A stretch of DNA of 64,000 bases from Prorocentrum cordatum (GCA_963575745.1 CAUYUJ010000026.1:124001-188000); one strand, 5' to 3'. Positions 8,113 to 64,000 are shown, counted from the stretch's first letter. The notes: generated from the sequence alone by a model not told the origin. Numbers and translations are program-made.

Positions 8113-8150
<38 letters not shown>

Positions 8151-32170: not shown

Positions 32171-32234
<64 letters not shown>

Positions 32235-32329: not shown

Positions 32330-32417
<88 letters not shown>

Positions 32418-33933: not shown

Positions 33934-33955
33934 TCCGTAGCCATTTTGGCTCAAG
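33934..33955 (+). other. Dinoflagellate spliced leader (DinoSL), perfect genomic copy 1
   Basis: TCCGTAGCCATTTTGGCTCAAG matches DCCGTAGCCATTTTGGCTCAAG; not followed by GT. Confidence 0.97.
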
Positions 33956-34138
33956 TTCCCAACGTCGCGCCCGCGCTGGGAGCTTGTTTGCAGCCGAGGG
34001 AGCGGCTCAAGGCTCCCAAGACTTCGCACCCCAGGGGTGCACGGCTGTCGCGGCCAAACTTTGTGAGCTCCTGCTGGAGCAGACACCGCCTCTTCTGAGG
34101 CTTCCGCATTCCACGGCCCCGCAGGGGGCACATCGCTC

Positions 34139-43559: not shown

Positions 43560-46500
43560 ATGAAGTAACTGTGTTGGGCCATCTTCGAGCTATTTTGGGC
43601 CGTCTTGGTGGCCTCCTGGCCCGTCTGACGCCGTCGAAAGCTGTCTTGAGGGCCTTTCTGGGACGACTTGGGGCCCTCGTGCCCCAGTTCCGTTTTGGAG
43701 TCCATCTTGGGCGTCTTGGAGGCTTCGTGGGCAGTCTTGGGGCCCTCTTGGGGCAGTCTTGGGGGCATCTTGGGCCGTTCTGGGGCCATCTTGGAGACCT
43801 CTTGGGCGATCTTGGGGCAATCATTCGGGACTCTTGGGCCGTCTCAGGCCGTCGGAAGATGGAACAGAGGCGTATTCCAGAATCCTTCAAAAACTCACGA
43901 ATATCAATGAATTTTGTATCTTGGAGCCTTCCTGGAGGGCTTCTTGGAGACCTCTTGGGCCGTCTTGGAGGCCCCTTGGAGGCATCTTGGGCCGTGTCGG
44001 GCCATCTTGAGGCTATCTTAGGCCGTCTTGGCAGCATCTTGGGCCGCGTTGGAGGCACCTTGGGGCCATCTTAGCCGTCTTTGAAGCCACCTTGGCAATC
44101 TTGGAGGCGTCTTGGGGGCCAGCTTGGGCCATCTTGGCGGTCTTGGGAGCTCTCTTCACCCGCTTTGGGAGTTCTTGTATGAGAATTGGGCGCCTTCCGG
44201 GTGGCCGACGGGACGGGCCAGAGCCCCAGGGGAGATTGTCTGTTGGAGAAAAAACCAAAACCCAAACTGGCAGGGTCTAGCACGCCAGGCACCCCTTCAC
44301 CGCCCACCAAACCACCCCAACCCAACCCGAAGGCCCCGCTTTGCTCTCTATTTCCAGTGTGGGGGTTGGGTCAGGGAGCACTGAAAAAAACACATATGGA
44401 ACCCGTACCCCCCCCCAACCCGAAATTCGGGCAGAGTTTCTTCGGGTTGGGTTTGTGTGGTCTGGTAGGTAGTCACCCCTGTGGCAAGCTAGCAGGGGGC
44501 GGCGGCTCGAAGATGCCTGCGACGAGTCACCGCCGCCCCCTGCCTTTTGAGATCGCCAATGTGACCGAGCGTTCAGGAGAAGGAAGAGAAGGAGGAGGAG
44601 GAGGAGGAGGAGGAGGAGGAGGAGGAGGAGGAGGAGGAGGAGAATGAGGAGGAGGAGGAGGAGGAGGGGGCATGAGGAGGAGGAGGAGGAGGAGGGGGCA
44701 TCTTGGGAGCCTGGGGGCACTCGTGGGGCATCTTGGCATCCTGGGAGCTTCCTGGGAGCCTCTTGGAGGCATCTTGGGGGCATCCTTGGGCCTCTTGGAG
44801 GTCTTTGGGGGCTTCTCGGGAGCCTCTCTGGCCGTCTCAGGGCATTCCTGGTCCGTCTGACGCCGTCGGAAGCTGTCTTGGGGGTCTCTCTGGGCCTACT
44901 GGGGGCCCTCCTGGGGTGCTCCAGGACCGTCTTGGAGGCCAACCTGGGTCGTCTTGGAGGCCTCTTGGGTTGCCCGGGGGCCTGGGCCGGTCTTGGGGGC
45001 CTCTTGGGCCGTTCTGGGGCCATCTTGGAGACCTCTTGGGCGATCTTGGGGCAATCATTCGGGGCTCTTGGGCCGTCTCGGGTTGTCGGAAGATGGAACA
45101 GAAGTAAATCGAGAATCCTTCAATAACCAAAGGAAAATCTATGATTCTAGTCCCTTCGAGCCTTCCTGGGGGTCCTCTTGGAGGCCTCTTGGGCCGTCTT
45201 GGAGGCCTCTTGGAGGCATCTTGGGCTGGGCCATCTTGAGGCCATCTCAGGCCGTCTTGGCAGCATCTTGGGCCGTCTTGGAGGCATCCATGGGCCATCT
45301 TGGCCGTCTTGGAGGCCATCTTGGCCGTCCTGGAGGCATCTTGGAGGCCCCATCTTGGGCCACCTTGGCGGTCTTGAGTGCCATCTTGAGCCGTCCTGGG
45401 GACTAAAGACGGCACAGTGGGTGCCTGCCGGTCCCTTCCAGGTGGCCGGCGTACTGGGCCGGAGCCTCAGGGGAGAGCTCGTTTTGGGGGTGGACAGACC
45501 TCCTACCCTGACGCGTCGAGTAGCGAATTGGCCGTCTTCGCTTCGCGTGAGAACGTCGCGGCCGTAGCTTTGCGGGTCCAGGTCCGTCGGTTTCTGTCCT
45601 GGGCCGTTTTCACTGAAGGGTGGTTTGCTAAAGGGAGGTTTGTCCACCGCCGATCTTTGGGGCAAAAAACCAAAACCAAAAACGGTAGGGACTAGTACGC
45701 CAGGCACCCCTGTGGCAAGCCAACAGGGGGCGGCGTATCGAAGACGCCTGCGGCGAATCACCGCCGCCCCCTGCCCCTCTGGAAGCGCCTCTGTGGCCGA
45801 CAGCTGGGCCAGGGCTTGGCCAAGCTATCGGGTCAGTTGTTCAACGAGTCGATTTGGAAAGACTTCCGGGAACGCATGGGGGAGCAAGAAGAGGAGGAGG
45901 GGGAGGATGAGGAAAAAAGAGGAGGAGGAGGAGGAGGATGAGGAGGAGGAGGAGGAGGAGGAGGAGGAGGAGGAGGAGGCCTCTTGGGGCACTCTTGGAG
46001 CCTCCTGGGAGCTTCCTGGGGGCCGCTTGGAGGGTTTTGGGGGGCCCTTGGGGGCTTCTTAGAGGTCTCTTTGGCCGTCTTAGGGCGTTCCTGGCTTCTC
46101 TGGCGCAGTCGGAAGCCGTCTTGGGGACCTGTCTGGGTCGTCTTGGGGCCCTCTTGGGGCATGTCAGGGGTTCTTAGAGGCCATCTTGGGCGTCTTGGAG
46201 GCCTCTTGGGCCGTTTTAGTGCCCTCTTGGGGGCCGTCTTGGGGGCCTTTTGGGCCGTCATGGGATCTTGGAGGCCTCTTGGGCGATCTTGGGGGCCTCT
46301 TGCGCCGTCTTGAGCCGTCGGAATGACGAGAAGAAGCAAATGCCAAAATCATTCAACAACTGTAGGACAATTAGTGATTTTGGCCTCTTCGTGCCCTCCT
46401 GGAAGACCTCCTGGACGCCTTTTGGGCAGTCTTGGAGCCTCTTGGGGGGGCCTCTTGGGCCGTCTTGGACCATCTTGAGGCCATCTTAGGCCATCTTGGG

Positions 46501-48741
46501 TGCATCTTGGGCCGTCTTGGAGGCATCTTGGTGCCAGCTTAGCCGTCTTGGAGGCCATTCTGACCGTCTTGGAGGCCTCTTGGGCCCTCTTGGGGCCGCC
46601 TTGGGGGCCTCTTGGACCGTCATGGGGCCATCTTGTAGGCCTCGTGGGCGATCTTGGGGGCCTCTTGGGCCGTCTTGGGCCGTCGGAATGCCGAAACGAA
46701 GCAAATGCCACAATCCTTTCAACACCCCAGGAAGCTCAATGATTTTGGCCTCTTCGGGCCCTCCTGGAGGACCTCTTGGAGGCCTCTGGGGCCTTCTTGG
46801 AGGCCTCTTAGGGGCCTCTTGGGCCGTCTTGCGCCATCTGGAGGCCATCTCAGGCCGTGTTGGATGCATCTTGGGTTGTGTTGGAGGTATTTTGGGGCCA
46901 TCGTAGCCGTCTTGGAGGCCACCTCGGCCGTCTTGGAGGCCTCTTGGGGCCCTCTTGGGGCCGCCTTGGGGTTCTCTCGGACCGTCATGGGGTCATCTTG
47001 GAGGCCTCTTGGACGATCTTAGGGCGATCTTGGGGGCCTCCTGGGCCGTCTTGAGCAGGCAAAAGGCCGATAAGAAGCACATGCCAACATCCTTCAAAAT
47101 CCGAAGGAAAATCGAGACCCTCCTTGAGGACCTCTTGGAGGCCTCTTGGGTCGTCTTGGGCCGTCTTGGAGGCTTCTTGGGCGAACTTGGAGGTATCTTG
47201 GACTCTCTTGGGCCGTCTTGGAGGCCGTCTTGGATCATCTTGGGCGGACTTGGAGGCCATCTTGGAGGCCATCTTGGGCCAACGTGGCCATCTTAGAGGT
47301 CATCTTGAGCGGTCTTGAAGGAACAAACATGGGATTGAGATTTCTTCTGGGACCCCGGCGGGGCGCGCCGACGCCCCAGGGGGAGTTCCTTCGGAAAAGG
47401 AAGCAACACCAAAACATCTTGGGCCAACGTGGCCATCTTAGAGGTCATCTTGAGCGGTCTTGAAGGAACAAACATGGGATTGAGATTTCTTCTGGGACCC
47501 CGGCGGGGCGCGCCGACGCCCCAGGGGGAGTTCCTTCGGAAAAGGAAGCAACACCAAAACCGAACGGATCTAGCATGCCCCTGTGATGAATCAACAGGGG
47601 GCGGCGGATCGAAGACGCCTACGGCGAATCACCGCCGCCCCCTGCCCTTTCGGAAGCGCCTATGTGGCCGAACGTTGAGGCCAGACCTGCCAAGCTATCG
47701 GACCATGTGTTCCCCGAATCGGTTTGGAAAGCCTTCGGGGAACACGTGGGCATCTTGAAGGTCATCTTGGCCGCCTGGAGGTCATGCTGACCCTTTCGGG
47801 CCTTCTTGGATGACGTCTTGGAGGGCTCTTGGGCCGTCTTGGAGGCCTCTTGGAGCTGTCTTGGGCCTCTTGGACGATCTTTGGGGGCACTTGGGCCGTC
47901 TCGGACTGTCGGAAGGCCGAAAAGAAGCAAATGCAGAACTCTTTCAACAACAAATTGAAAATCAATGATTTTTGGTTTCTTCGGGCCTTCCTGGAGGCTC
48001 TCTTGGACGTCTCTTGGGCCGTATTGGGCCATCGTAGTGCCATGTTCAGCTGTCTTTGTGGGCTCCTGGTCCGTCTGACGCCGTCGGAAGCCGTTTGGGG
48101 GGCCCCTATGGGCCGACTTGGGGCCCTCTTGGAATGCTCCAGGGCCGTCTTGGAGGCCATCTTGGGCGCCTTAAAGGCCTCCTGTGCCGTCTTGGGGGCC
48201 TCTTGGGGCCGTCTTGGGGGCCTCTTGGGCCGTTCTGGGGCCATCTTGGAGGCCTCTGGGGCGATCTTTCGGCGATCTTTGGGGGCTCTTGGGCCGTCTC
48301 GGGCCGTCGGAAGGTTGAAAAGAAGTAAATGCCAACGTCCGTCAGAAACCTTAGGAAAATCAGAGTTTTTGTCGTATTCTGGCCTTCCTGGAGGCTCTCT
48401 TGGAGGCCTCTTGGGCCGTTGTGGGTCACTTAAAGGCCATCTTGGGCGTCTTGGAAGCCTGTTGGGTCGTCTTTGTGCCCTCTTGGGGCCGTCTTGGGGG
48501 CCTCTTGGGCAGTCCTGAGGCCATCTTGGAGGCCTCTTGGGCGCTGGGCGATCTTGGGAGCTTCTTGGGCCGTCTTGGGCCGTCGGAAAGCTGAAAAGGC
48601 GCACATGATAATTATATATATATATATATATATGTAAAAGTTATATGTGGTATATATGGTATATAAGTTAAATTTATGATCTATATATATATGTATTTAT
48701 ATACACAAATATGTATGTATATTTTTTATATATACATGCAT

Positions 48742-48784
<43 letters not shown>

Positions 48785-51700
48785 CATACAAACATACATA
48801 TGCATATATACATGTATATATATATATATAACTCCAGAAAAAATGAGTTTGGCCTCTGCGGGCCTTCCTGGAGGACCTCTTGGAGGCCTCTGGGGCCTTC
48901 TTGGAGGCCTCTTGAGGGCCTCCTGGGCCCATCTAAGGACGTCTTGGGTGCATCTTGGGCCGTCTTGGGTGCATCTTTGGCCGTTTGGGAGGCATCTTGG
49001 GGCCATCTTCGCCGTCTTGGAGGCCATCTTGTCGTCTTGGAGGCCTCTTGGGGCCATCTTGGAGCCGTCTGGAACGGAAAAACCCTTTGCAACCACCTCT
49101 GAAAGATCTTTCGGCATCCTTCCTGGTGGCCGGCGGGACGCGCCGGAGCCCCAGGGGGAGTCCTTTTGGAAAAGGAGCAACAACCAAAACCGATAGGATT
49201 CGGCACGCCAGGCACCCCTGCGCTGAATCGACAGGGGGCGGCGGATCGAAGACGCCTACGGCGAATCACCGCCGCCCCCTGCTTTTTTGGAAGCGCCTAT
49301 GTGGCCGAACTTTGAGGCCAGACCTGCCAAGCTATAGGACTATGTGTTCCCCGAATCGGTTTGGAAAGCCTTCGGGGAACACGTGGGCATCTTGAAGGTC
49401 ATCTTGGCCGTCTGGAGGCCATTTTGACCCTTTCGGGCCTTCTTGGAGGACGTCTTGTCTTGGAGGTCTCTTGGACCGTCTTGGAGGCCATCTTGAGCGT
49501 CTTGGAGACATCTTGGGCCGTCTTGGGGGCCTCTTGGGGGCCTCTTGGGGCCGTGTCTTGGGCCTCTTGGGCGATCTTTGGGGGCACTTGGGCCGTCTCG
49601 CGCCGTCGGAAGGCAGAAAAAAAGCAAATGCCACAATCCTTCAAAAAGCCATGGAAGATCAATGATTTGGGCCTTTCGGGCCTGCCTGAAGGCCCTCTTG
49701 GAGGCCTCTTGGGCCGTCTTGGGCCATATTAGGGCCATGTTCAGCTGTCTTTGTGGGCTCCTGGTCCGTCGGAAGCCGTTTGGGGGGCCTCTATGGGCCG
49801 ACTTGGGGCCCTCTTGGAATGCTCCAGGGCCGTCTTGGAGGCCATCTTGGACGTCTTAAAGGCCTCCTGTGCCGTCTTGGGGGCCTCTTGGGGCCGTCTT
49901 GGGGGCCTCTTGGGCCGTTCTGGGGCCATCTTGGAGGCCTCTGGGGCGATCTTTCGGCGATCTTTGGGGGCTCTTGGGCCGTCTCGGGCCGTCGGAAGGT
50001 TGAAAAGAAGTAAATGTCAACATCCGTCAGAAACCTTAGGAATATCAATGTTTTTGGCCTCTTCTGGCCTTCCTGGAGGCCCTCTTGGGGGCCTCTTGGG
50101 CCGTCTTGGGCCAGCTTCGAGCCAATTTCGGCCATCTTGGTGGGTTCCTGGCACGTCTGACGCCGTCGGGAGCCGTCTTGGGAGCCTTTCTGGACCGACT
50201 GGGGGGCCCTCTTGGGGCGCTTCGGGGCCGTCTTGGAGGCCAGCTTCGAGCCAACTTCGGCCATCTTGGTGGGTTCCTGGCACGTGTGACGCCGTCGGGA
50301 GCCGTCTTGGGAGCCTTTCTGGGCCGACTGGGGGGCCCTCTTGGGGCGCTTCGGGGCCGTCTTGGAGGCCATCTTGGGCGTCTTGGAGGCCATCTTGGGC
50401 GTGTTGGAGGACTCTTGGGCTGTCTTCGGGCCCTCTTGGGGCCGTCTTGGAGGCCACTTGGGCCGGCATGGGGCCTCTTGGGGTCCTCTTGGGCGATCTC
50501 GGGGGCCTCTTGGGCCGTCTTGAGCAGGCGGAAGGCCGATACGAAGCAAATGCCAAAATCCTTCAAAAACCTGAAGACAATCAATGATTCCCCACATGTT
50601 TCGTGGGGTTCTGGTTTTTTCCCTGCCGCGCCGCACCCGCGTCTCAACTGCTCCTCCCTCCTCCCCTCCTCCGCTTGCTCGCAAAGCGTGGCAGGCGTGG
50701 CACATCCTTGACACCACAGGGGACGCGCTGGGGGTGGGGTCGCTATCCGTTTCGGGCTCGCAAAGCGTGGCAGGCGTGGCACATCCTCGACACCACAGGG
50801 GGCGCGCTGGGGGTGGGGTCGCTATCCGTTTCGGGCTCGCAAAGCGTGGCAGGCGTGGCACAACCTCGACACCACAGGTGGGCGCGCTCGGGGTGGGGTC
50901 GCTATCCGTTTCGGGCTCGCAAAGCGCGGCAGGCGTGGCACATCCTCGACACCACAGGTGGGCGCGCTCGGGGTGGGGTCGCTATCCGTTGCGGGCTCGC
51001 AAAGCGTGGCAGGCGTGGCACATCCTCGACACCACAGGGGGCGCGCTGGAGGTGGGGTCGCTATCCGTTTCGGGCTCGCAAAGCGTGGCAGGCGTGGCAC
51101 ATCCTCGACACCACAGGGGGCGCGCTGGGGGTGGGGTCGCTATCCGTTTCGGGCTCGCAAAGCGTGGCAGGCGTGGCGCATCCTCGACACCACAGAGGGC
51201 GCGCTGGGGATGGGGTCGCTATCCGTTTCGGGTTCGCAAAGCGTGGCAGGCGTGGCACATCCTCGACGCCACAAGTGGGCGCGCTGGGGGGGTTTCGGGT
51301 TCGCACAGCGTGGCAGGCGTCGCACATCCTCGACACCACAGGGGGCGCGCTGGGGGTGGGGTCGCTATCCGTTTCGGGCTCGCAAAGCGTGACAGGCGTG
51401 GCACATTCTCGACACCACAAGGGTCGCGCTGGGGGTGGGGTCGCAATCCGCTTCGGGCTCGCAAAGCGTGGCAGGCGTGGCACATCCTCGACACCACAGG
51501 GGGCGCGCTGGGGGTGGGGTCGCTATCCGTTTCGGGCTCGCAAAGCGTGGCAGGCGTGGCACATGTTCGACACCACAGGGGTCGCGCTGGCGGTGGGGTC
51601 GCTATCCGTTTCGGGCTCGCAAAGCGTGGCAGGCGTGGCACATTCTCGACGCCACAGGGGGTGCGCTGGGGGTGGGGGCCCTATGCGTTGCAGGCTCCCA

Positions 51701-54250
51701 GGGCGTGGCAGGCGTGGCATGTCCTCAACGCCACATGGGGTGCGCTGGGGGTGGGGGCTCTATGCGTTGCAGGCTCCCAGGGCGTGGCAGGCGTGGCATG
51801 TCCTCGACGGGGGCCTCTTGGGCCGTCTTGGGCCAGCTTCGAGCCAACTTCGGCCATCTTGGTGGGTTCCTGGTACGTCTGACGCCGTCGGGAGCCGTTT
51901 GGGTGGCCTTTCTGGGCCGACTGGGGGCCCTCTTGGGGCCCTTCGGGGCCGTCTTGGAGGCCATCTTGGGCGTCTTGGAGGCCATCTTTGGTGTGTTGGA
52001 GGTCTCTTGGGCCCTCTTGGGGCCGTCTTGGAGGCCACTTGGGCCGTCATGGGGCCCTCTTGGGGGCCTCTTTGGCGACCTTGGGTGCCTCTTGGGCCGT
52101 CTTGAGCAGTCGGAATGCCGAGAAGAAGCAAATTCCAAAATCCTTCAAAAACCTAGGAAACATAAATGATTTCGGCCTCTTCGGGCCCTCCTGGAGGACC
52201 TCTTGGAGGCCTCTTGGGCCGTCTGGGAGGCCTCTGGGGGGCCTCTTGGGCCGTCTTGGGCTGTCTTGGACTCTCTTGGGCCGTCTTGGAGGCCGTCTTG
52301 GACCATCTTGGGGGGACTTGGAGACCATCTTGGGCCATCTTCTAGGTTTTTTGAGGATGTCCTGGGCGAAACGGCAGTTTTTGGCGACGACAGACGGGTT
52401 TTCTGGGTGGCCCGAGCGAAACGGCCGTTTCAGGGAGGAGTGTTTGTGTACGTTGGGGTCCTGGGCAATCCTCCCGGGACTCCGGCGGGACGGGCCACAG
52501 CGCCAGGGGGAGTTCTTTTGTAAAAAGAACCAACACCAAAACCGAAAGGGTCCAGCACGCCAGGCACCCCTGCGATGCTGCGATGAATCGACAGGGGGCG
52601 GCAGATCTGGTGGCTTCGGCCCATCCCGCCACTGTGCCGGGGTTGAGGGTCAGAGTCCAAACAGATGCTTCTTGGGGTCTCTTCGGAGGGCTCTCGTGGG
52701 CCTCTGGCGGGAGCAGTTTCGAGGCCTCTTGGGAGCCTCTTGGGGGTCTCTCTGGTGCCTCCTGGGGCTTCCTGGGGGCCTCTTGGGGGCATCTTGTGGC
52801 CTCCTCGGGCTTTCTTGGGGGCCTCTAGTCTTGGGGCCGCACGCTCGAACTGCCCGATCGCGAGAGGGGGTTCTTTGAGTTTCACAAGCGATTGCTGGGG
52901 TCTGTTTGGGCCCCTCTTGGGGACCGCTTGGAGGCAGTTCCGAAGGCTCTTGGAGCCTCATGGGGGTCGTCTGAAGGCCTCATGGGGCTTTTGCTAGGCC
53001 CTTGGGGCATCTTGCCTGACTTGTGGGTCGTGGGTGGGAGTGGGGATTGTTCTGAGCCTCCTGGTGGCCTTTTGCCTGGGTCGTGGGTCATAGGTGAGAG
53101 ATCTCATGGGTGCTTCTTTGAGTAGTTTCGGATGGCGCTCGGGGGCTTCTGGGGGGCAGTCTTGAGGCCCCTTGAGAGTTTCTTGGGGGCCTCTTTGGTG
53201 CCTCCTGTTGCTTCCTGGGGGCCTCTTGGGGCCATCTTGTGGCCTCTTCGGGCTTTCTTGGGGGCCTCTAATGTTGGGGCCGCGCGCTCGAAATGCCCGT
53301 TCATGAGGGGGTTCTCTGAGTTTCAGTTCTCTCAGATGATTGTTGAGGTCTGTTGGGACCCCCCGAGGGACCGCTTGGAGACAGTTTCGAAGGCTCTTGG
53401 AGCCTCATGGGGGCCGTTTGAAGGCCTCATGAGCCTCATGGGGCTTCCGCTGGGCGCTTGGGTTGTGGGTCGTGTGTGAGAGTGGGGCTTATTCTGAGCC
53501 TGGCCTTTGGCCTGGGTCGTGGGTCGTGAGTCGTGGGTGAGAGTTCTCATGTGTGCTTCTTTGGGTATTTTCGGAGGGCTCTCGGGGGCTTCTGGGGGCG
53601 CAGTTGTGAGACCCCTCAAGACTCGGGGGCATCTCCAGTGCCTCCTGGAGCTTCTTGTGGGCCTCTTGGGGGCCTCTTGGGGCCTCTTCGGGCTTTCTCA
53701 GTGGCCTCTGAGGGCGTCCTTGGGGCGTCTTCGGGCCGCACGCTCGAAATGTCCTTGCGGGTTTCCCCACTGGAGCCTCTCGTGGGGGTGTCTTGGCTTA
53801 GGCTGCCTTGGGGGCCTCTTGGGCTCTCCTGGGGCCCCTTGGGCCGTTTTGGAGCTCCTGTTGGAGCCTCTGGAGCCATCTTTGGACGATCTTCGGGGCC
53901 GCTTGGGGCGATCTTGGATGTCTTCTGGACCTTCTTGGGCGCCGTGAAATCGCAAAAGGCGAATTTGATGAACATGTACGTTTCCCAAATGAAATGGCAC
54001 GACTTGTTGCTTCTCTGGGCCTTCTTGCGGATGCTCTTGGGAACTTCTTGAGGCGTCTTGTGGGCCCCTTGGGCCGTCTCGGGGCCACATCGGGTCGTCT
54101 TGAAGCTGTCTTGGACCGCCCCCGGGATCCGTGTAGCCATCTGAGGCAGTTCTGGAAACGATCTCGAGGGTTCGGGAGGTCGCCTGAGGCTGGCTGAGCA
54201 GCTGCCAGGAGCTCCCAGGAGCAACCGGGAAAATGGGCGTCGGGGCCCTT
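43560..54250 (+). repeat. Large array of GGCC(G/A)TCTTGG(A/G)-based modules with local duplications
   Basis: Dense 10-11-bp units; 145-bp tandem duplication at 47270-47559; ~0.8-kb duplication 47590-48420 versus 49226-50100; (TA)n at 48605-48830. Confidence 0.95.
50677..51808. repeat. 79-bp tandem satellite, ~14 copies
   Basis: GCTCGCAAAGCGTGGCAGGCGTGGCACATCCTCGACACCACAGGGGGCGCGCTGGGGGTGGGGTCGCTATCCGTTTCGG repeated. Confidence 0.97.
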
Positions 54251-54627
54251 ACGAACATTTCCCCCCTTCATCTGAGGGCTGCAGGGCTGCATGAGCCTTG
54301 GGGCACTCCACCACGTGCTGAAGGCACGGTGGCTGATAAGCATACATCGGAGTCTGGGTGGTAAGATCGCAGTGAAACGGAGAGCCCTTCACTATGAAAT
54401 CGGTTTCGGTTTAGTGTCGTGCGCGCGGGTGAGGCGGAGCTGCGTGAGCGGGCGAGAGGAATGATCCCGCCCTGACTAGGGCGAAACTGGGCTCAATGTC
54501 TCTCCTCCCCCCCGGTTGGCCGGCGGTGGCCTGGGGGTGTCCCGCCGGTATCCCGTGGTGTCCCATTGTGTCCGGTGGTGTCTCGTGGCGCGGTGACCCG
54601 CGGTGGCCTGTGGTGGCGCGTGGAGGT

Positions 54628-55040
54628 CGATTGGGATCGATAGTGAGATCGATAGTGAGATCGACAGTGAGTTCGGCGGTGAGGTTGACAGATAGTGGGA
54701 TCGCTCGATAGAGGGAGATCGATCGTGGAATCTATAGACGTGTTTGTCCGTGGTGTCCCGTGGTGTTTCGTCGTGGTGCCCTGCGGCCTTGTATGCTGTT
54801 CCGTGGTGCCCAGTGGTGTCTCGTGCCGATAGATGTATCGTAGGACTGGCGATGGCGGTGGTGGCGGTGGTGGCATTCACTTGCCCGCGATTGCGTTGAT
54901 GACGCAATCGCCGACTGATCGTGACATTGATAGGATGTGTCGCGAGATAGACCATGATATCGCTATGCAGATAGTGAGATCGATTGCGCGGTGGATAGCG
55001 AGACCCATAGATAGTTAGATTGGTAAATCGATAGTGGGTC
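54628..55040. repeat. GATCGATAGTGA-type low-complexity repeat
   Basis: Repeated (GA)TCGATAGTG(A/G)G units. Confidence 0.75.
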
Positions 55041-55252
55041 GCGATGGTGCCATTTATTTGCCTCAGCAGTGAGTTCAGGTGCTACGTCCAATGGCATTTC
55101 GATGGTATCCCGATGGTGTCCCGATGCTGCCCCAGTGGTGCCCCAGTGGTCCCACCAGCGTCGTCAGTACGTATCGTCGCCGCCTCGTACGCGCATCACC
55201 CGCATCGTCACCATCACAGTCGTCGCAGTTGCCACCAGCAGCCCCCCCCCCG

Positions 55253-55353
55253 ACACACACACAGACACAGACACAGACACAGACACAGACACAGACACAG
55301 ACACAGACACAGACACAGACACAGACACAGACACAGACACAGACACAGACACA
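55253..55353. repeat. (ACAGAC)n microsatellite ending immediately at a DinoSL
   Basis: About 15 perfect units, then ACA and the SL. Confidence 0.97.
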
Positions 55354-55375
55354 TCCGTAGCCATTTTGGCTCAAG
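55354..55375 (+). other. DinoSL perfect genomic copy 2, followed by a probable relict SL (CCATTCGGCTGAG)
   Basis: Exact 22-mer; the next 13 nt resemble CCATTTTGGCTCAAG. Confidence 0.97.
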
Positions 55376-55451
55376 CCATTCGGCTGAGCTGGCTGCGCCC
55401 GGCGCCGCTTCTCCGGGGCTTCCCGTGCCCTGCGCAACTTCGCCCGCCGGC

Positions 55452-56459
55452 ATGGAGCTGGAGGCACTGTTGTCCAGGTGCCCGGTGGCCGCCGCGGCCT
55501 TCGGCGCGGTGGCGGCGGCGCTGTGCGCGCCGAGCGCGCCCGGCCGCCAGGTGGCCATGGTGGCAGCCTCCGTGGTCCGCGCCGCTGGCACGACGCCCCA
55601 CGGAGCGCGTGGAGGTGAAGGCGTCCCGGTGTGTGGCGAGGGTGTCACGGCTGCGGCGCACATCAACATCCAGGAAGACCTCTTGCTGGCCGCGCAGGCG
55701 TCTTTGGGTCTGAAGCAGAGGCCAGGCGTATCGGACGTCAAGCGCGAGCTTCGGCGGAGAGGATGCAGCTCCTTAGCCTCGAAGTGCGGTCGGCTCTCGA
55801 AGCTGCGGGACACCGAGGCCCACATGGCGGCGAGCCTCCCGGCGGCGGTGGCGGCTGCGCTGATGGGCTCGCCTGTGTCGGGCGACCAGCAGCCCGGCTC
55901 GGTGGGCCGCTTGGTGCTTGACACGGTGTCCAGCGAGGAGTTCGCGACGGCCTCTGACTCCCAGCACGGCTCCTTGCCGCTGGAGAAGAAGCTGGTGTCG
56001 TCCCAGTCGCCGGCCTCGGACTTCCTGCACGACCCCGAGAAGCAGGAGGTAAAGTTGGAGGAGATCAAGTTGCTGGTCTCGGACGAGCAGTTCGTCAAGA
56101 GCGGCAGCGCCACGCCTACCGCTGCCTGCTTGGGCGGGCGCATGGGCGGGGCCAAGTTCCCTGTGGAGGCCGAGGCGCCGACGGAGGCCGCGCCGCCTAT
56201 GAAGCAGGCCTCAGCTATGGGAACCGCCGCGTACGACGAGGATGAGTTCCGTGAGGCGACCAAGGGCCTCAGCGAGCGCCAGTCCTTAGTCCTGGCCGTC
56301 GTCGACGGCATCGTGGAGGGCAATGTCGATGTGTCCCTGTCTGAAGTCCTCAGGCTGCTGGACGGCATGGGAGTGCTTCATGTGCCCCAGGGACCTCGTC
56401 TTGTCAGGGGCCGTGTCGCCCTCCTGCGGAAGCGTGGGCCTTCTGAGGTGCTCGTCTGA
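55452..56459 (+). CDS. Intronless hypothetical protein, 335 aa (ORF X)
   Basis: First ATG after the SL; open to TGA at 56459; GC3-rich codons; contains LASKCGRLSKLRDTEAH. Confidence 0.75.
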   Translation: MELEALLSRCPVAAAAFGAVAAALCAPSAPGRQVAMVAASVVRAAGTTPHGARGGEGVPVCGEGVTAAAHINIQEDLLLAAQASLGLKQRPGVSDVKRELRRRGCSSLASKCGRLSKLRDTEAHMAASLPAAVAAALMGSPVSGDQQPGSVGRLVLDTVSSEEFATASDSQHGSLPLEKKLVSSQSPASDFLHDPEKQEVKLEEIKLLVSDEQFVKSGSATPTAACLGGRMGGAKFPVEAEAPTEAAPPMKQASAMGTAAYDEDEFREATKGLSERQSLVLAVVDGIVEGNVDVSLSEVLRLLDGMGVLHVPQGPRLVRGRVALLRKRGPSEVLV

Positions 56460-56890
56460 ATGATTGCAGTTGATATGTTCGTCTTGTGAGGCCTTCTGTT
56501 CTGTGCAGTCTGCGCCCGCACGAGGTGGAGTGTCATGAAGTGATTCCCTCCTGTATTTGTACGGGTACGTGCCAGGCCGCCTCTCGTTGGTTTGCGCGGA
56601 TCCATCATGCAGTCGAGAATGTTGTCTTTATGTTTCAGCCTCCTGCTCTGCATTCTGTGCACATGCAGGAGTTGACCCGAGTCGGAGGTTGAGGGTTTGA
56701 CGTGTCGAGCGTGCTCTCGGGGCCGATGTGCCCTGGAGGTGTTGGTTCCGACGTCGTCGATGCGCTCTGGGCCGAAGCGCCCCTTTCGTGTCTTGGGAAG
56801 GCCCCTGTGGGCCGTGGCTTCTCAGTGAGGCCTTGGCCCACGGTGGGCTCCTTTTGCCTTTATAGGCCCCGCGTCGCAGACACAGACACA

Positions 56891-56912
56891 TCCGTAGCCA
56901 TTTTGGCTCAAG
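56891..56912 (+). other. DinoSL perfect genomic copy 3
   Basis: Exact 22-mer at the 5' end of LINE-b. Confidence 0.97.
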
Positions 56913-57073
56913 GCCATGGAGCACCCGACGACCGCGAGTCGTCCGCGGCGCTCTGAGCGCGAGGGGCTCTTCGCTTTGGGCCAGCTCACAAGTGATTTTT
57001 CTTCGTGCCGACAGCACGGGCCGCCAGGCCGCAGTTTTGGGCCGCGAGGCCACACGTCGGGGTCAGCCTTGCC

Positions 57074-58054
57074 ATGGTGGCGTACGGACAGGCAGCTGGA
57101 GGCCGCTCCTGGGCCAGCGTCGCGGCGTGCGGCAAGGCCAAGGGCAACTGGGGCTACTGGGTCTGCTCCAGCGGCCAGGGCAGGGAGTGGAACTGGTGCT
57201 CGCTCTGGAAGTGCCGCAGCTGCGGCCGAGTGGCCCCGCCTTGGGTCGAGGCAGCCCAGCCGCCCGCGGCTGCCGCTGGCCAGGAGCCGCCCGTCGCCGA
57301 CGCCGAGGGCTTCGTCGTCCAGCCCCGTGGGAGGAAGGCGAGGCGCCAGGCCAAGCGCACTGCTGCCCGCGCGGCCAGCGCTGGGGCCGCCAGTCTGGCA
57401 GGCGTCAGCGAGGCCAGCAGCGCGCAGCCGTCGGCCGTCGAGCGGCACCGCCAGGAGGTCAAGCGCATCGAGGACTTCCTCGCGGCCCCTGGCGGGTCCA
57501 TCGGCGATGGGTGCCTGCAGTCGCTGCGCGCGGCCCTCGACCGCGAGCGTCGCAGGCTCTCGGCAGCCGAGGCGGCGCTGGCGGGGCGCAGGAGGGCCGA
57601 CATCCCCCTGCCCAGGGCGCTCCACGGCGCAGGCAACGCCCCGGGGAAGCTGGTCAGGCAGGGGCGGGCCAAGGAGCAGGCGCTGCTCAAGGCAGAGGAG
57701 GCGCGCGAGGCCGCATGCGCTGAGGCGGTCGAGGAGTGCCGAGTTGCTCTCGAGGCTCACCGCGAGGGGCAGAGGGCCGCGGAGGCCAGGCAAGCCAAGG
57801 AGGTCGGCGCGGCCTTCGTCGGCACGGACTTGCTCGGGATGGTCTTCGGCCTCATCCAGCAGGTCGAGGCCTTGCCCCAGGGCTTCGCCGCGGGCAACGG
57901 GGAGGCCGCCTTCGCGGAGGTCGCCAAGCAGATCGCCGCGGCCCGCAGGCATGCACCCCCCGAGGCCAAGGGGCGCTCATCCTGGGCCGACACCCCCCTC
58001 GACGTCTCGGACGAGGACCTCGACGGAGATGAGGAGGAGCGGGTGCGTGCGTGA
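57074..58054 (+). CDS. LINE-b ORF1 (Cys finger + coiled coil)
   Basis: ATG at 57074; GYWVCSS...WNWCSLWKCRSCG; helical Ala/Glu/Arg-rich region; acidic C-terminus after SWAD. Confidence 0.8.
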   Translation: MVAYGQAAGGRSWASVAACGKAKGNWGYWVCSSGQGREWNWCSLWKCRSCGRVAPPWVEAAQPPAAAAGQEPPVADAEGFVVQPRGRKARRQAKRTAARAASAGAASLAGVSEASSAQPSAVERHRQEVKRIEDFLAAPGGSIGDGCLQSLRAALDRERRRLSAAEAALAGRRRADIPLPRALHGAGNAPGKLVRQGRAKEQALLKAEEAREAACAEAVEECRVALEAHREGQRAAEARQAKEVGAAFVGTDLLGMVFGLIQQVEALPQGFAAGNGEAAFAEVAKQIAAARRHAPPEAKGRSSWADTPLDVSDEDLDGDEEERVRA

Positions 58055-58343
58055 CGCGGCCGAGCGCGGCCAAGCTGCGCGGCGAGGAGAGGCGCACGGT
58101 GCGTGGCCCTCAGCCCAGCCGCTGGCTAGGGACCTGGCCAACGCTGGGGCAGCCCTCCTCGACGACCAGCCTTTGGCTACTACGGCTGCTGTGGGCCGCA
58201 GTCGGGTTTGACGTCGATTCGGCAGGCCCGTGTTCGGTTGACAGCAGGAGGGTCAGACGGCGCCTGAGCGAGAGCGGGGAGCCCAATGCCTTTCCCTGGG
58301 CCTGGGCAAGCCTGCGAGTGCGGCACCTGGCCGAGGGGGAGCG

Positions 58344-61300
58344 ATGAGGGCCGCCGACGGGCGGGTGGCCGATGCCCCTCACCCCCCCGCGCTCCCCGTC
58401 GAGGCCGCTGACGAGCGAGTGGCCGAGACCCTCGACGGGCGCAGCGGAGCCAAGGTGTCAAGTGTCCAGAGGACGAGGATGACGGCGCAGGAGGCCTGCA
58501 TTGGCGAGGCTCGCCTCGGGCCGCAGCCTGCCCTTGAGTCCGACCCTCGAGGACATTGCCCCCTGCGTGCTGGCCTGGAGGTCCTGGGCTGCAACGGTAA
58601 CGTCTGGAACAGGAGCGCCGAGGTCCTCGAGGCCTTCTTCCACGCCCACCAGCACTGGCCGCAGCTGGTCCTCCTTCAGGAGACGAGGCTAACCCACGAG
58701 CGCCTTCCTGGGGCCAGGGCGCTGGCACGCCGCCTCGGCTACACCGCCTTCTTCCACGAGGCGGTGGCCACGGACCAGCCTGGCCCGAACGCCGCGTCGG
58801 GCGGCGTCGCGATCCTGGTGAGGGCTGGACTCCAGGCCGAGGAGTCCGCGTGCCAGCTCCCTGCGGCCCTGCGCCACCGCCTCATCGGCGTAGAGGTGAC
58901 GGCGCCGTCGGGCCTCCGCCTCCACGCCTTGGCTGGGTACTTCCAGCACTCCTTGGGCCCGCGGGGGATCAACCTCGACCTGTTCTCCTCGGTCTCGGAC
59001 CTAGTGGCATTCTCGCTCGACTTGCCCTGGGTCCTCCAGGCTGATGTCAACATGGAGCCCGAGCCCCTGCAGGAGTTGGGCTGGCCTGCAGCGGTTCGCG
59101 GTCAGGTGCCCGGACCCTCTGAGGCGACCTGCTGTGCCCAGGGCTTGGAGCACGTCTACGACTGGTTCGTCGCGTCGTCCGACCTGGCCACGTGCACGGC
59201 GTCCTGCGCGACCACGCTCAACGACTTCGCGTCCTGCGCGACCACGCTCAACGACTTCGGGCTGCACCCGCACTCTCCTGTGCTGCTGCGCCTCCAGTGC
59301 GTCAGGTGCGATGCCCTGGTCGAGGTGCCCTCCCGTCCTGCTCGGTTTCCAGAGGTGGAGGTCAAAGGCCTGCGCTCCCGCGAGGACGCCCTGGCCCAGG
59401 CCTTCACTGTCGGCAGGCGCGGGAAGGTGTCGCAGAAGGATGTAGCTTGGTCATGGGCTCAGGGCTCGCGCCCGACCTGTCTCTCTGCTGCCTTCGGCGA
59501 GTGGATCGAGGCGGCGGAGGGCACTCTCACGGGCATCCACGGGATTGCGCCAGGCGACCTGCCGCGGTACCTTGGGCGAGCAGCAGGGCCCAAGACCAGG
59601 CGCATGCCCTTCAGCGCGCTGGTGCAGCGCGAGGCCAGGTTGAAGTACAGCATGCTGACCCACCGCCTGAGGAGCTGCCTAGCGGTCGCCCTCCAGAGGC
59701 TTCGCGCCGAGCAGGCCAGCAGGTGGCACCCGAACCACTCTTGGTGGTATGAGCAGGAGGCTGCGGCGAGGGCGAAGCCCCTGGACGAGGCGACCCAGGA
59801 GGAGGCTGGTCTGCGGAGCGCGCTCCTCCCTGGGGCCTCCGACGAGAAGTGGGGTGACCTCGCCTTCCACGCGGGGGTGAAGGGCTGCCCCACGGCGATC
59901 GCCAAGCTGCAGTCGTGGCTCTTGGCGTCCCAGAGGCGCGATGCCGCTCGTGGTCAGCGGCGCCGACACTGGGAGGCCCCTCGTCGGCATGGACGCCGTG
60001 GACCAGCTCACGCGCACGTGGCAGCGGCTCTGGCTCCAGGAAGGCTTCTCCAGCGGAGTCGGAGCCCACCGGTGGGATGTTGGCTCCTGGACGTTGCCGC
60101 CCATCACCCTGGAGGCCTTGCAGCAGGCGTGCAAGCGCTACGGCCCGTCGGTGGGGCTGGGCTGCGACAACCTGCAGCCTCGCCAGCTTCTTCTGCTGCC
60201 AGTGGCGCTGCAGCTTCGCCTGATTGACATCCTCACGGCGTTCGAGGACGAGCCCTCTTCGATCAGGGGACAGGTGACGCCCATGGTTTTTATTCCTAAA
60301 GCTGACGGAGGGACGAGGCCCATCGCGCTGCTCCCGCTGGCCTTGCGGCTTTGGTCTCGCCTGAGGCAGCCGTGCTGTGCCCGATGGGAGTCAGACCACA
60401 GCTTCCCCTTCTTCTGGGGTCGCGATGGCCGTGATTGCGAAAGAGCGGGTTGGATCCACAACTGCTTCGCGGGCTTCGCGATGGCCTCCCCGCATTTCGA
60501 GGTGGCCAGCCTGTTCCTGGACATCCGCAAGTTCTACGAGCACGTGCGCCACGACGTCCTCTGGACGTCAGCCCAGCGCTTCGGCTTCAACCTGAAGCTG
60601 CTGCGCGGCCTCCTCGCCATCTACCAGGCCCCGGGGATCGTGCTGGCAGGTGGCATGGCTTCGGCCCCCTTTGGGGCCAGTGGCACAGTGCTGGCGGGCT
60701 GCGCGTGCGCGACGGCTGTTGCTAAGCTTCCCGTACTTGGAGGCCTCCTCGCAGCTGGGGCTCAGCGGCCTCTTGCCACCCTGCGCAACTTGGTGGGCGA
60801 CGTCTCGCTCCAAGCTGTCGGCTCGGCGAGGCTGGTTGTGGACCAGCTCGCGGGGGCCAGTGGGGAGGTGCTGCGACACCTGCGGGCCCACCACCTCCCG
60901 CTCAATGAGGGCAAGTCCGTGTTCCTGGCCTCGTCGGCACAGGTGGCGGACGGCCTCGCCGCCAGCTGGGCCGCCCTCGGCTTCGAGGTCAAGCGTGGCT
61001 CCCAGGCCCGCAGCCTGGGCACCGACGCCAACGTGACCCGCAGAGGGGTCCACGAGGGAGGCGCCCGCGCCGTGGGAGGCCTCTCCCGCGCCAGGCGGCT
61101 GAGAACCCTGGGCTCGGCGGGGGCCGCGGTGGTGCACATGCACCGCGCAGGCCCAACCGCCGCCATGCTGTGGGGCAGGACGGTCACAGGGGTGCCCGAC
61201 GGCGAGCTTCACTCTTGGCGCCTGGCGGCTGCGCGCTCGGCAGGGAAGCTTCCCAAGGGCGCCTCCCTTGGGCTGAGGCCCAGGGCGATCGAGGTGCAGC

Positions 61301-63583
61301 GCTCCACCGACCTGGACCCGAGCCCAGCCCTGGTGCGTGCCGCGGTGCAGGTGGCAGCCAGCCTCCTTCAGACGGGCGAGGTTCCCCTGATGATGTTCGC
61401 TACCTGCCTGGCGGAGGCCGAGCGCAGGCACGACAGCATCAGGGCGCCCTGGGTGAACTGCAAGAACCCCGTCGACGCCCTGGCCCTCTCTCTGTTGCGG
61501 GTTGGGTGGCGTCTCTCGGCTGGGCACATCCTGCACACCGACGGCGGCCACACCTTGGACATGCTGATCATGGCCCCCCGCGAGCTCGGGCTGCTGGCTG
61601 CGGCAGGTGCCCGCAGGGCCTCCGACAGGGCTGAGATGACGCGGCTTGGGCACGGAGCCGCCCCCTCCATGCCTTTGTTTTGGGACGCACTCGGCCAGGT
61701 CATCGGCCCGCGCGGCAGGTTCAGCTGCAGGGAGAAGGCCGCGGTGGTGAGCTACCTGTCCAACGCCCACTGGCCGCAGACTCGCCTTTTCGCGTCTGGT
61801 GAGCGGGGCCACCCTCGCTGCTGCGCCTGTGGCGAGGTGCGTGGCAGCCTCTGGCACTGGCTTTTCGAGTGCCAATCCCTGGCCGCTGAGAGGAGGGACT
61901 CGGTGTCAGCCCGCCTCCTTCGCTGCGCCACTCGAGTGAGGCAGCGAGGTGAGGAGGCGGGGGAGTGCTTCTCTAGGTGCTGGCTGCCGCAGCCCCCGCA
62001 GACGGCCTGGAGGTCGGACGCGATGGCAGCCATGTGGGTGAACAGGCCTGCCGACGGGCTGCTAGGCGGTCGCTTTTTCCTCGACGGCTCGGCGCTCGAC
62101 CATGAGTTCGAATGCATCCGCAGGGCTGGCTGGAGTATCGTGCAGTGCGACGAGTTCGGCAACATGGAGGCGGCGGTGTACGGCACGGTCCGCCTCGACC
62201 TATGCCCCTTCCAGACGGCGAAGGACGGCGAGGACCTCGCGGTCTGGATGCTGAGCCGCTACCTCGGGCCTTCGATCATCGAGATCAACATCGACTGTGA
62301 GTCCACAGTCAGCTGCTTGAAGCTCGGCAGGAAGTATGCGACGGCGGCCACCAAGCCCAATGCACACCTGTGGTCGGCCGTCTACGCCTCGCTGGACGTC
62401 GACTCGCTCAATGTGAACAAGGTGGCGGCCCACTGCACCGAGACCGATGTCAGCGAAGGCAGGATCTCGGAGTATCAGTGGCTTGGGAACGCCCACGCCG
62501 ACACCTCGCTGGACGTCGACTCGCTCAATGTGAACAAGGTGGCGGCCCACTGCACCGAGACCGATGTCAGCGAAGGCAGGATCTCGGAGTATCAGTGGCT
62601 TGGGAACGCCCACGCCGACAGGCTGGCGAAGGCGGGGGCGGCCCTCCACAGGGCCAGCGCGGCGGCCAGGCGCGAGTTCTTCGGCGCGATGGAGGTCGTG
62701 AGAGAGCTCTCCAGGTGGATCGCGCAGGCCTCGATCGTCTGGCAGGACAGGGCCTCCAAGGACTGCGAGGGCCTCCCTGAGCGCGACGAGCGAAGGACGG
62801 CTGTCACCTTCGCGGTCCCGCTGGAGGAGCGTGCTGACGGCCTGCGGGCGGCCCCCGTGAGCGAGTCGGGTGCCCCGCCCGCCGCCGTGGGGGCCCGCGG
62901 GGAGCAGGCAGGCAGCCGCCCCGCCGCTGTCGGCGCCTGGGCCTCGGCGGCGCGCGACGGCGGAGCAGCGCTGGGCGCCCTGGTCTTCGCCGTCGCTGGG
63001 CACGCCCTCGCGCGCGCCAGGTGCGGTGAGGACGGCGACCAGCAGGAGATCATTGCGTGCACCAGGTGCGGAGCGTATGCGAGGCTTGGCGGACTCCCCG
63101 GCCCGCAGCCCAAGCTCAGGGAGCGCTGTCCTGGGGCAACGGGCCTCCCCAGGTCGCTGCGGGACCAGAAGTCGCGGTGGGAGCGTGGCCTCCACCCTGG
63201 GCGCGCGCCGCACGCCCGCGACGCGCGGAGGAAAGGGGGCGGAGGCCACCCGCCTTCGCAAGGAGGCCGAGGTGCCGCAGGACGCCAGGGTGCGTTTCCT
63301 GAAGTGGCTCGGAGTCCAGCCTGATGCCCCAGCAGGCGTCGAGGGCAGCGCCTCGGTGGCCGACGCTGCTGGGGGCGACGCTGGCTGCGCGGCCTCCTCC
63401 TCGACGGAGCTGCCCGCGGCGGCTGGGGGCGCCGCGGCGGGAGCGGGATCGCGGCAGGCCTGGCTGGAAGCCGACGGCCTCGATGAGGAGAGCCTGCTGA
63501 GCTGGGCTGAGGAGGCTGAGGAGGCCCGACTTGAGCGCCAGAGCAGGAAGCGGCGCAGAGATGACGGAGATGGAGGTGATTGA
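58344..63583 (+). pseudogene. LINE-b ORF2: APE endonuclease, RT, CCHC-like finger, RNase H; frameshifts near 59950 and 63250
   Basis: GCNGNVW, LLQETRL, SGGVAILVR, QADVN, YDWFV, HSPV (APE); FIPKADGGTRPIALL, FLDIRKFYEHV, LAGC, LVGD in place of (Y/F)xDD (RT); CCACG...HWLFEC; FLDGSA, GEDLA, IDC, KVAAH, GNAHADRLAKAGA (RNase H). Confidence 0.92.
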
Positions 63584-64000
63584 GTCCGCGCTGGCCCCAG
63601 CCTTGGGGCGCTCGGACCGCGCGAACGCGCGTGTGCCGAGCCTTGGCTGCTCCTGGCTGTGGAGCGCCAGCCTGCCTCTCCTCCTGTCCTCCCTCTGCGT
63701 CCGTCTCCTGTCCGCCCGTGCGTTTTGGACCCCTGGTGGCCGCGGGCCTCGGCGTGTGGGCGTTAAGCTTCCTGCGCCTCGCCTGCCTCGCCGTGCCGCT
63801 TGGGGCTGTGCAAGCATGTTTGGGGCGTCGCCCGCCGCTTGTCTGCGCGGTTGTATATATTCCAGCGCTTCGCGCTGATGCCCCTCGACGGGGGTCTGAG
63901 CTGACAGGCCGAGCGGTGCCTCGGGGCCGATGTGCCCTGGTGGCAGCCTTCTGCGGCTCGTCTGGGCTCTCGGGATCCCTTGTGGCCCGCCCCCTGTCTT

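Follow-up and report, generated by a model that had tools for sequence, protein, structure and literature searches.

How do dinoflagellates turn messenger RNAs back into genes, and what machinery makes the copies? The question is raised by a locus of Prorocentrum cordatum that occupies positions 55252-64000 on the + strand of the window, the 64-kb stretch of DNA that was analyzed as a whole. Here, a unit carrying a protein-coding open reading frame (ORF), ORF X, and a long interspersed element (LINE), LINE-b, lie head to tail. Each begins with a complete, genome-encoded copy of the dinoflagellate spliced leader (DinoSL; SL, spliced leader), each leader directly abuts a CA-rich microsatellite, and the 3′ untranslated regions (UTRs) of the two units have a block of 42 nt in common. 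The pair hints at how messenger RNAs are returned to the genome in these organisms.

DinoSL-tagged "recycled" cDNAs in dinoflagellates go back to Slamovits and Keeling 2008, as cited in PMC6050394, PMC5585692, and PMC12014239. In the available text of PMC6050394 and PMC5585692, approximately one-fifth of the genes in surveyed dinoflagellates are leader-tagged retrocopies. The retroposition machinery is stated to be unknown in the portions of PMC6050394, PMC5585692, and PMC12014239 that could be accessed; within the same portions, one review prefers long terminal repeat (LTR) elements (PMC6050394), and another article holds that retroposition "may be mediated by retrotransposons" (PMC12014239). 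The accessible part of PMC5585692 also reports that the Gene Ontology term "RNA-dependent DNA replication" is enriched among DinoSL retrogenes, and leader-tagged genes for reverse transcriptase (RT) are therefore not new in themselves. In the literature searched, with most subscription journals and supplements not covered, no dinoflagellate leader-capped LINE with a repeat tail or a coding partner was found, nor was a dinoflagellate LINE described with a retrogene-shared 3′ block or with insertion into a microsatellite.

The account of the locus that we favor, and to which we give an even chance, is that both units are full-length cDNA copies made by target-primed reverse transcription at CA-rich microsatellites, with a hairpin in the 3′ UTR as the recognition element.

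Leaders, repeats, and the junctions between them

The 5′ flank of the ORF X unit is the CA-rich microsatellite at 55252-55353, in which (CA)4 precedes (GACACA)n; it contains an exact (ACAGAC)15 at 55261-55350 and is the probable insertion target of the unit. The full 22-nt DinoSL follows at 55354-55375 (an exact 21-mer plus T at 55354), with 22 of 22 nt encoded in the DNA directly 5′ of ORF X. Behind it lie a 76-nt 5′ UTR (55376-55451), ORF X itself (335 aa, 55452-56459), and a 417-nt 3′ UTR (56460-56876). Reading the sequence from the stop codon to 56876 reveals no A-run, which agrees with an earlier note on this DNA, made from the sequence, that the unit has no poly(A) tail. The 3′ UTR instead runs into (CAGACA)2.3, the 14-mer CAGACACAGACACA at 56877-56890, which is a microsatellite tail or target remnant between the units. 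A second genome-encoded, full 22-nt DinoSL at 56891-56912 then forms the 5′ end of LINE-b, which runs off the window end at 64000. The earlier note had described the order (ACAGAC)n, SL, ORF X, 3′ UTR, 14-mer, SL, LINE-b, and sequence reading and pattern searches recovered every one of these elements at the positions it gave.

In a search of the window, the DinoSL 21-mer is found exactly at 33935-33955, 55355-55375, and 56892-56912, and a preceding T completes the full 22-nt leader at each site; 0 of 100 shuffles contained any match. All three copies head retro-units, namely ORF X, LINE-b, and a second element, LINE-a. The leaders of ORF X and LINE-b abut the repeat in identical phase, with ...GACACA followed immediately by TCCG, and the association between SL and CA-rich microsatellite that had been proposed is thus borne out in both units. 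The first 13 nt of the ORF X 5′ UTR (CCATTCGGCTGAG) agree with the last 15 nt of the leader at 11 of 15 positions with 2 gaps, as judged by eye. On sequence grounds, a previous round of retroposition may have left this segment behind as a relic of a leader that has since decayed.

Evidence from public sequencing runs consists of contigs only, from four runs (X1, X2, X5, and X12). X1 is a DNA run; no record states what kind of run X2 is, and the assignment of X5 and X12 to RNA is a guess. Contig depths cannot rank genes, and contigs cannot show RNA starts. A 1528-nt X2 contig spans 55379-56888 without joints; its 22 letter differences and 2 insertions relative to the window mark it as another copy of ORF X. 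Past 56888, this contig reads CAGACACAGACACAGA, where the window has CA and then the leader. The second copy has the same 3′ end base, followed by at least 28 nt of (CAGACA)n, and the junction of the ORF X 3′ end into the repeat accordingly recurs outside the window copy. Another X2 contig begins at 56895, inside the leader; its 12 loose letters, which we take to be the end of a sequencing adapter, were not used.

The earlier note had interpreted the 14-mer as a target-site duplication, an interpretation that does not survive this comparison. Within the window, the 14-mer matches throughout 55262-55353, once more at 56877-56890, and nowhere else exactly; with one mismatch allowed, two further matches appear in an (ACAG)n tract near 8100-8300. 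The repeat tract varies in size, from 102 nt upstream of the ORF X unit to 14 nt between the units and at least 28 nt in the other copy of ORF X. Because its length differs between copies at the same junction, a classical 14-bp target-site duplication is rejected, and the 14-mer belongs instead to a microsatellite tail or target of variable length. Seven X1 contigs also carry a CA-rich repeat in front of 56880 and the SL. Junctions with the repeat have therefore been seen at two 5′ boundaries and one 3′ boundary in the window, at one further 3′ boundary in the X2 contig, and in the seven X1 contigs.

The common 3′ block and how the units may have moved

Local alignment of the two 3′ UTRs returns one block, 56698-56739 on the ORF X side and 63902-63943 on the LINE-b side, in which 37 of 43 columns are identical (42 nt). 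The block scores 52, as compared to a mean of 22 and a maximum of 32 in 500 dinucleotide shuffles, none of which reaches 52. It encloses the 21-mer CTCGGGGCCGATGTGCCCTGG, whose presence in both 3′ UTRs had been noted earlier and is confirmed here. In the window, this 21-mer occurs exactly twice, at 56716-56736 and 63920-63940, even when up to 3 mismatches are allowed, and 0 of 100 shuffles contained two matches. The flanks of the 21-mer taken alone are not significantly alike, with 231 and 218 of 500 shuffles reaching the observed scores.

In both contexts, the 21-mer is predicted to fold into a 6-bp hairpin with the loop CGAUGU and 3 further pairs. The lower stem differs between the units yet pairs in each, as CUC:GAG in ORF X and GCC:GGC in LINE-b. 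The last 140 nt of the ORF X unit (56737-56876) are strongly structured, with a long stem-loop and a folding energy of -69.7 kcal/mol (z -4.0; none of 200 shuffles folds equally well). Searches of JGI metagenome, GTDB genome, and IMG/VR contigs gave 0 exact matches to the 21-mer, which is expected for a eukaryote and lends no support. An Rfam search over 54500-64000 found nothing relevant, its single hit being a chance-level miRNA match (E 0.066).

Part of the LINE-b 3′ UTR, of which 63584-64000 is visible, recurs in the run contigs. One X2 contig extends 115 nt beyond the end of the window. Short contigs from X2 and X12 match 63857-63997 near-perfectly, with 1 other letter in 69 and in 102. 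In X2 records 15-19 and X12 record 11, this 3′ module (63857-64000) is preceded by other sequence, with loose ends before 63826, 63849, 63856, and 63857, and a fifth junction of the module is found in X5, at 63826. The last ~140 visible bases of LINE-b thus stand behind at least two unrelated upstream sequences in the X2, X5, and X12 contigs, and the sequences of the loose ends were not found within the window. This arrangement fits further partners of LINE-b and, equally, 5′-truncated LINE copies inside other transcripts. Three of the upstream sequences before the module are variants of one T-rich-plus-hairpin motif.

In the mechanism that we propose, trans-splicing would give the LINE RNA a defined 5′ end, such that a promoter of its own would be unneeded, and the leader would be copied into every new insertion. 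The LINE endonuclease would nick (CAGACA)n or (CA)n tracts, and the nicked bottom strand would anneal to the CA-rich 3′-terminal run of the RNA, thereby priming reverse transcription. Repeat-primed reverse transcription of this kind would explain the simple-repeat tail that stands in place of poly(A), as well as the microsatellite sequence that flanks the ORF X unit at either end and LINE-b at its 5′ end. The reverse transcriptase would choose its template via the 3′ UTR hairpin, formed by the 21-mer within the 42-nt block, and an mRNA with the block and a repeat tail, such as that of ORF X, could then be mobilized in trans. Recognition, priming, and mobilization in trans are inferred, whereas the layout of the locus, the presence of both units in multiple copies, the common block, and the matching 3′ junction of a second ORF X copy are observed.

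Two groups of known elements offer comparisons. In stringent LINE/partner pairs, eel UnaL2/UnaSINE1 and zebrafish L2, the 3′ UTR forms a stem-loop, as it is predicted to do here, according to the available text of PMC3747384, PMC1636434, and PMC4176376. UnaL2 ends in TGTAA repeats and shares its 3′ stem-loop with its short interspersed element (SINE), as given in the accessible parts of PMC3747384 and PMC1636434; the short tandem-repeat tail (TGTAA in UnaL2, CAGACA here) and a partner that encodes no RT are likewise common to these pairs and our locus. Unlike in these pairs, as far as the same texts describe them, the partner here is a 1.5-kb protein-coding, leader-capped mRNA copy rather than a short RNA polymerase III SINE, the common part is an internal block of ~42 nt located 137 nt from the end, and mobilization is putative. 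The accessible part of PMC3812793 describes LINEs with an apurinic/apyrimidinic-type endonuclease (APE) that target microsatellites, namely Waldo (ACAY), Mino (AC), Kibi (TC), Koshi (TTC), and Dong (TAA). As described there, they resemble LINE-b in being APE-type LINEs in a microsatellite, CA-rich in our case, with fixed orientation and repeat at the junctions. They differ in organism group and repeat unit, and the present locus offers a handful of junctions and, in LINE-a, an element with no microsatellite flank.

Several observations weigh against the proposed mechanism, and the evidence for its key functional step is thin. The stability of the hairpin is ordinary for its composition (z -0.96 and -0.07), and the two instances of the block are too few for conservation or covariation statistics. 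In classical LINE/SINE pairs, the shared part reaches the very end of the elements, whereas the block here is internal, stops 137 nt short of where the ORF X unit ends, and is followed in LINE-b by 60 nt that give no significant alignment to ORF X (218 of 500 shuffles). The 3′ end and tail of LINE-b lie outside the window, and LINE-a is not preceded by a microsatellite. The contigs with the LINE-b 3′ module could, as noted above, be truncated LINE copies. Since the run kinds of X2, X5, and X12 are unrecorded, we make no claim that the repeat tail is transcribed. Finally, the 14-mer and SL together form a 41-nt repeat of a kind that is prone to misjoining in assemblies, and no contig piece among those listed bridges 56876-56913, which leaves the adjacency of the two units to the assembly.

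Alternatively, the block could be a passive remnant with no part in mobilization, either of a 5′-truncated related LINE or of a small repeat that inserted at some time into the ORF X 3′ UTR, in an ordinary DinoSL retrogene that lies by chance beside an SL-tagged LINE. ORF X would then spread by unspecific retroposition or DNA duplication, CA-rich repeats would merely be common, and the locus would amount to an ordinary retrogene next to an ordinary LINE. We regard this explanation as possible but unlikely. The limited extent of the common sequence (~42 nt, with unlike flanks), the ordinary hairpin stability, and the run contigs that join the LINE-b tail elsewhere, which fit 5′-truncated insertions equally well, all agree with it, as do the abundance of simple repeats in the window (208 rows from Tandem Repeats Finder, TRF) and the approximately one-fifth of dinoflagellate genes reported with DNA-encoded leaders in the available text of PMC6050394 and PMC5585692. 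It accords less well with a 3′ boundary that falls exactly at the repeat start in two ORF X copies, neither with poly(A), with 5′ junctions that are both in the same repeat phase, and with seven further contigs that have a CA-rich repeat before the SL. Coincidence is also an unlikely explanation for an exact 21-mer that the 3′ UTRs of two adjacent retro-units have in common, within a block whose score none of 500 shuffles reaches.

The two units might instead stem from one composite event, in which the RT switched templates from the LINE-b leader to the repeat tail of the ORF X mRNA or copied whole a read-through transcript of an older ORF X/LINE-b arrangement. LINEs are known to switch templates at RNA 5′ ends, and the 14-nt repeat is joined directly to the first leader base of LINE-b. 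However, the other ORF X copy continues into repeat, not SL, at the same place, and the gene downstream of another copy, P0002, is a different one; ORF X hence moves independently of LINE-b. Moreover, a mature read-through mRNA would not be expected to retain a full leader in its interior, and a composite origin appears improbable to us. That two unrelated loci were misjoined in the assembly at the 41-nt repeat of 14-mer and leader (55340-55379 versus 56877-56917, 97.6% identical over 41 nt) is the least credible explanation: the scaffold does contain a 100-N gap elsewhere, no bridge over 56876-56913 is present among the 27 contig pieces listed, with 715 more in existence, and contigs of X2 and X1 depart from the window sequence at 56888 and 56880, respectively, but the diverging contigs differ from the window elsewhere too, hence are other copies, and each unit would keep its own leader and repeat junction, which form the core of the finding.

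Insertion of a LINE into an SL RNA gene was considered and rejected. The full leader is preceded by the microsatellite, or by a different repeat, Y1, in the case of LINE-a, and the same layout heads a non-mobile gene. The trypanosomatid LINEs SLACS, CZAR, and CRE insert into SL RNA genes and split the leader. They are comparable in that a LINE adjoins spliced-leader sequence; here, in contrast, a complete 22-nt leader caps the element, a microsatellite or other repeat rather than an SL RNA gene precedes it, and the same leader also caps a copy of a non-mobile gene.

Target-primed copying at microsatellites with hairpin recognition, the reading that we favor, makes a countable prediction for any dinoflagellate assembly, in which the block should be followed at a fixed distance by a CA-rich repeat and then by the next leader. 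If it is true, a LINE can depend on trans-splicing in place of an internal promoter. A wider proposal is that a trans-spliced LINE family that primes on CA-rich microsatellites and chooses templates by the hairpin is the machinery behind the large-scale recycling of DinoSL retrogenes, with protein-coding mRNAs in the role of SINEs; host mRNAs with the hairpin, here those of a family of HEPN-like putative RNases, would return to the genome along with their leader. We offer this proposal tentatively and think it rather doubtful.

ORF X, a multicopy family with a probable HEPN-like domain

ORF X occurs in further copies at 90-99% identity, P0001, P0002, P0003, and P0032, on contigs of 1.5, 45, 100, and 539 kb. 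P0001 is 99% identical and located on a 1507-nt JGI contig, P0003 is 94% identical, and P0032 is 97% identical over the last 98 residues. P0002, at 90% identity, has a gene model that is fused to an unrelated downstream gene. The differing contigs, together with the downstream gene of P0002, indicate that the copies are dispersed and are not one duplicated block. The earlier note had named a single-copy ORF X with no repeat association as an outcome that would speak against its proposal; ORF X is multicopy, and its repeat junction is present in a second copy. The window ORF X ends differently from P0001 and P0003, and its last ~8 codons are out of frame with the other copies. All four runs examined have two inserted C, one behind 56435 and one behind 56438, and the window ORF X is therefore frameshifted at its end.

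An exhaustive HMMER search returned 24 cluster representatives at E<=1e-3, of which 10 were looked up; 6 of these are named, all from P. cordatum. Two models of distant ORF X paralogues on other P. cordatum contigs, P0033 and P0058, start with PFWLK, the translation of the last 15 nt of the leader. Other members of the ORF X family are therefore leader-tagged in the genome, and the family has been retroposed repeatedly. In these respects the ORF X unit is like other DinoSL retrogenes, with a genome-encoded leader directly 5′ of an intron-free copy, tagged paralogues, and a possible relic leader. Unlike in those retrogenes, the 3′ end is visible here, lacks poly(A), carries a simple-repeat tail, and has a block in common with a neighboring LINE. 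Both ends of a retrogene can thus be seen at this locus, beside a LINE whose 3′ block matches and whose junction with the repeat is the same.

ORF X had been reported to have no visible coding similarity to the LINE, and ORF1 of an internally deleted LINE had been named as an alternative identity for it. Comparison of ORF X with the LINE family profile shows no similarity (hhalign probability 0.2%), which upholds the former statement and rules out ORF X as an ORF1 remnant of the LINE. The ORF X unit is not LINE-derived; it represents an mRNA retrocopy of a host-type gene. HAL1 ("half-L1") is a non-autonomous LINE derivative that encodes the ORF1 of the LINE itself. It parallels the ORF X unit as a non-autonomous retro-unit that is still protein-coding, whereas ORF X does not resemble the LINE family profile and is a member of a distinct, HEPN-like family.

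Searches with ORF X gave no Pfam family, no Atlas match, no sequence match in the PDB, and no Foldseek match at E<=0.001. PADLOC yielded only noise of coiled-coil type, in some members of the family. A metagenome locus, L001, with one weak protein match to ORF X proved on reading to be unrelated AT-rich sequence and was rejected.

The family has an N-terminal module with an Rx4H motif in common. An alignment of 19 sequences shows no variation at R128 and H133, and at least 90% of its rows have N129; ORF X itself reads RDTEAH. HEPN domains contain an Rx4-6H motif in which a polar residue (N, D, or H) follows R, according to the available text of PMC3710099, and the ORF X family conforms to this pattern. 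The AlphaFold model obtained with the 19-sequence alignment has helices at residues 75-94, 102-111, 115-126, and 138-146, with the motif (128-133) at the end of helix 3. The predicted confidence (pLDDT) is 92-98 over most of residues 80-150 (78-79 over 121-140), with a mean of 62.8 for the whole model. The helical bundle and the place of the motif within it are thus predictions only.

A structure search with residues ~67-152 returned PDB entries titled or named as HEPN, 1wwp (Z 5.6), 3o10 (5.1), 8xdj (4.9), and 1wol (4.6), in a Z range (4.6-5.6) that is common for helical bundles. A fifth such entry, 2hsb, is a weak Foldseek match, and 5yep (Z 4.9) and 1ufb (Z 4.9) are entries that we take to be HEPN domains. 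Together, the motif and the model make it probable, with moderate confidence, that ORF X is HEPN-like in its N-terminal domain and represents an uncharacterized dinoflagellate family. If so, the family may be a putative RNase family outside Pfam.

LINE-b, LINE-a, and the surrounding repeats

LINE-b has a 5′ UTR at 56913-57073, and the proteins of its family begin at 57074. ORF1 (326 aa, 57074-58054) encodes a Cys-rich finger and a coiled coil; databases name its relatives "RanBP2-type domain-containing", and its profile gives coiled-coil-like PDB matches at profile positions 107-274. ORF2 is in three pieces, an APE part of the endonuclease/exonuclease/phosphatase (EEP) type in frame 3 (58344-59954), the RT and downstream part in frame 1 (59941-63237), and the C-terminal part in frame 2 (63233-63583). 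The placement of ORF1 and of the three frames follows from mapping relatives onto the window. Two duplications lie within ORF2, an exact 30-nt tandem duplication in the APE part (59199-59258) and an in-frame 117-nt tandem duplication with 116 of 117 positions identical (62384-62617).

The RT piece of ORF2 has 28 matches at E<=1e-3 with 44-96% identity, on contigs of differing sizes, and those that are named are all from Prorocentrum cordatum. In addition, the DNA run X1 covers 30 of 30 bins of the stretch, with many variant contigs; the matches and this coverage indicate many dispersed copies. The Pfam family Exo_endo_phos scores 19 bits in the LINE-b copy (E 1.3e-3), under the Pfam cut-off of 24.5 bits, and exceeds that cut-off in 3 of 5 relatives tested (P0009, 31.4 bits; P0026, 30.0 bits; P0011, 24.9 bits), which assigns an N-terminal apurinic-type (EEP) endonuclease to the family. 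RVT_1 scores 21.9-22.8 bits, below its gathering score of 29.6, in a match that spans profile positions 1-192 of 205, and zf-RVT is detected in one relative, P0026. RVT_1 is present in all six of the nearest named Atlas clusters listed, in most of them alongside Exo_endo_phos. No RT was found in the PDB for the LINE-b family by sequence or profile search, and the family is therefore very divergent. In searches of genome and viral contigs, no locus matched the LINE family profile.

The signatures of APE and RT in a multicopy family sustain the earlier description of LINE-b as an APE-type LINE. From its sequence, the copy in the window is a degenerate and now-defective member of a multicopy APE+RT non-LTR retrotransposon family. 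It lacks ~30 codons near 59950 that P0004 and P0006 have, and the RT part is out of frame with the APE part as a result. One extra base at 63232, which most X1 contigs leave out (depth 33.4/45, 2 contigs), causes the frame shift of the C-terminal part of ORF2. Most of the body of LINE-b has no cover in X2, X5, and X12, which is evidence neither for nor against expression. Translation of the minus strand of the LINE-b 3′ UTR gave no candidate ORF running past the window end. The first 28-72 nt after the leader (56913-56984) are common to other contigs, which then diverge, four from X1 behind 56940 and one from X2 behind 56984; one X1 contig skips 56941-57173.

LINE-a lies within 33934-38200, with its full DinoSL at 33934-33955 and an ORF1 that begins at 34139 and contains a Cys-rich finger like that of LINE-b. 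Its RT region (37228-37896) is 25-28% identical to relatives of LINE-b, with no nucleotide similarity to LINE-b itself, and its 3′ part seems to be lost in low-complexity sequence. A tblastx comparison of LINE-b with the LINE-a region was swamped by low-complexity matches.

Upstream of LINE-a is a repeat of ~120 nt, Y1 (33816-33933), which ends exactly at the start of the leader. A second copy, Y2 (45486-45607), is 82% identical to Y1; the likeness stops at the point where the leader begins, and unrelated sequence follows. Y1 and the 3′ UTR of ORF X have an exact 14-mer in common, GAGTCGGAGGTTGA, located just upstream of the common block, and 3 of 1000 shuffles reach its score. As judged from these sequences, Y1 may be the 3′ end of another retro-unit or the preferred target of LINE-a. 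The 3′ regions of ORF X, LINE-b, Y1, and Y2 did not yield a convincing alignment when all four were compared. For the motif TGACRNGNCGAS, 5 matches were counted as compared to 0.57 expected, but four of the five sites had served to derive it; the count is thus circular and was set aside.

The remainder of the window contains a scaffold gap of 100 N at 28114-28213, the assembly being scaffolded, and two other long microsatellites of CA/GT type, (ACAG)n on the + strand at 8113-8458 and (GTTGT)/(GT)n at 31736-32460, neither of which is adjoined by a leader or by the common block. Directly upstream of the microsatellite that precedes ORF X are ~10 kb of nested satellite arrays (43700-53900) with units of ~11, 21, and 32 nt (TCTTGGGGCC-like), and within this region an array of a ~79-nt satellite occupies 50677-51809.

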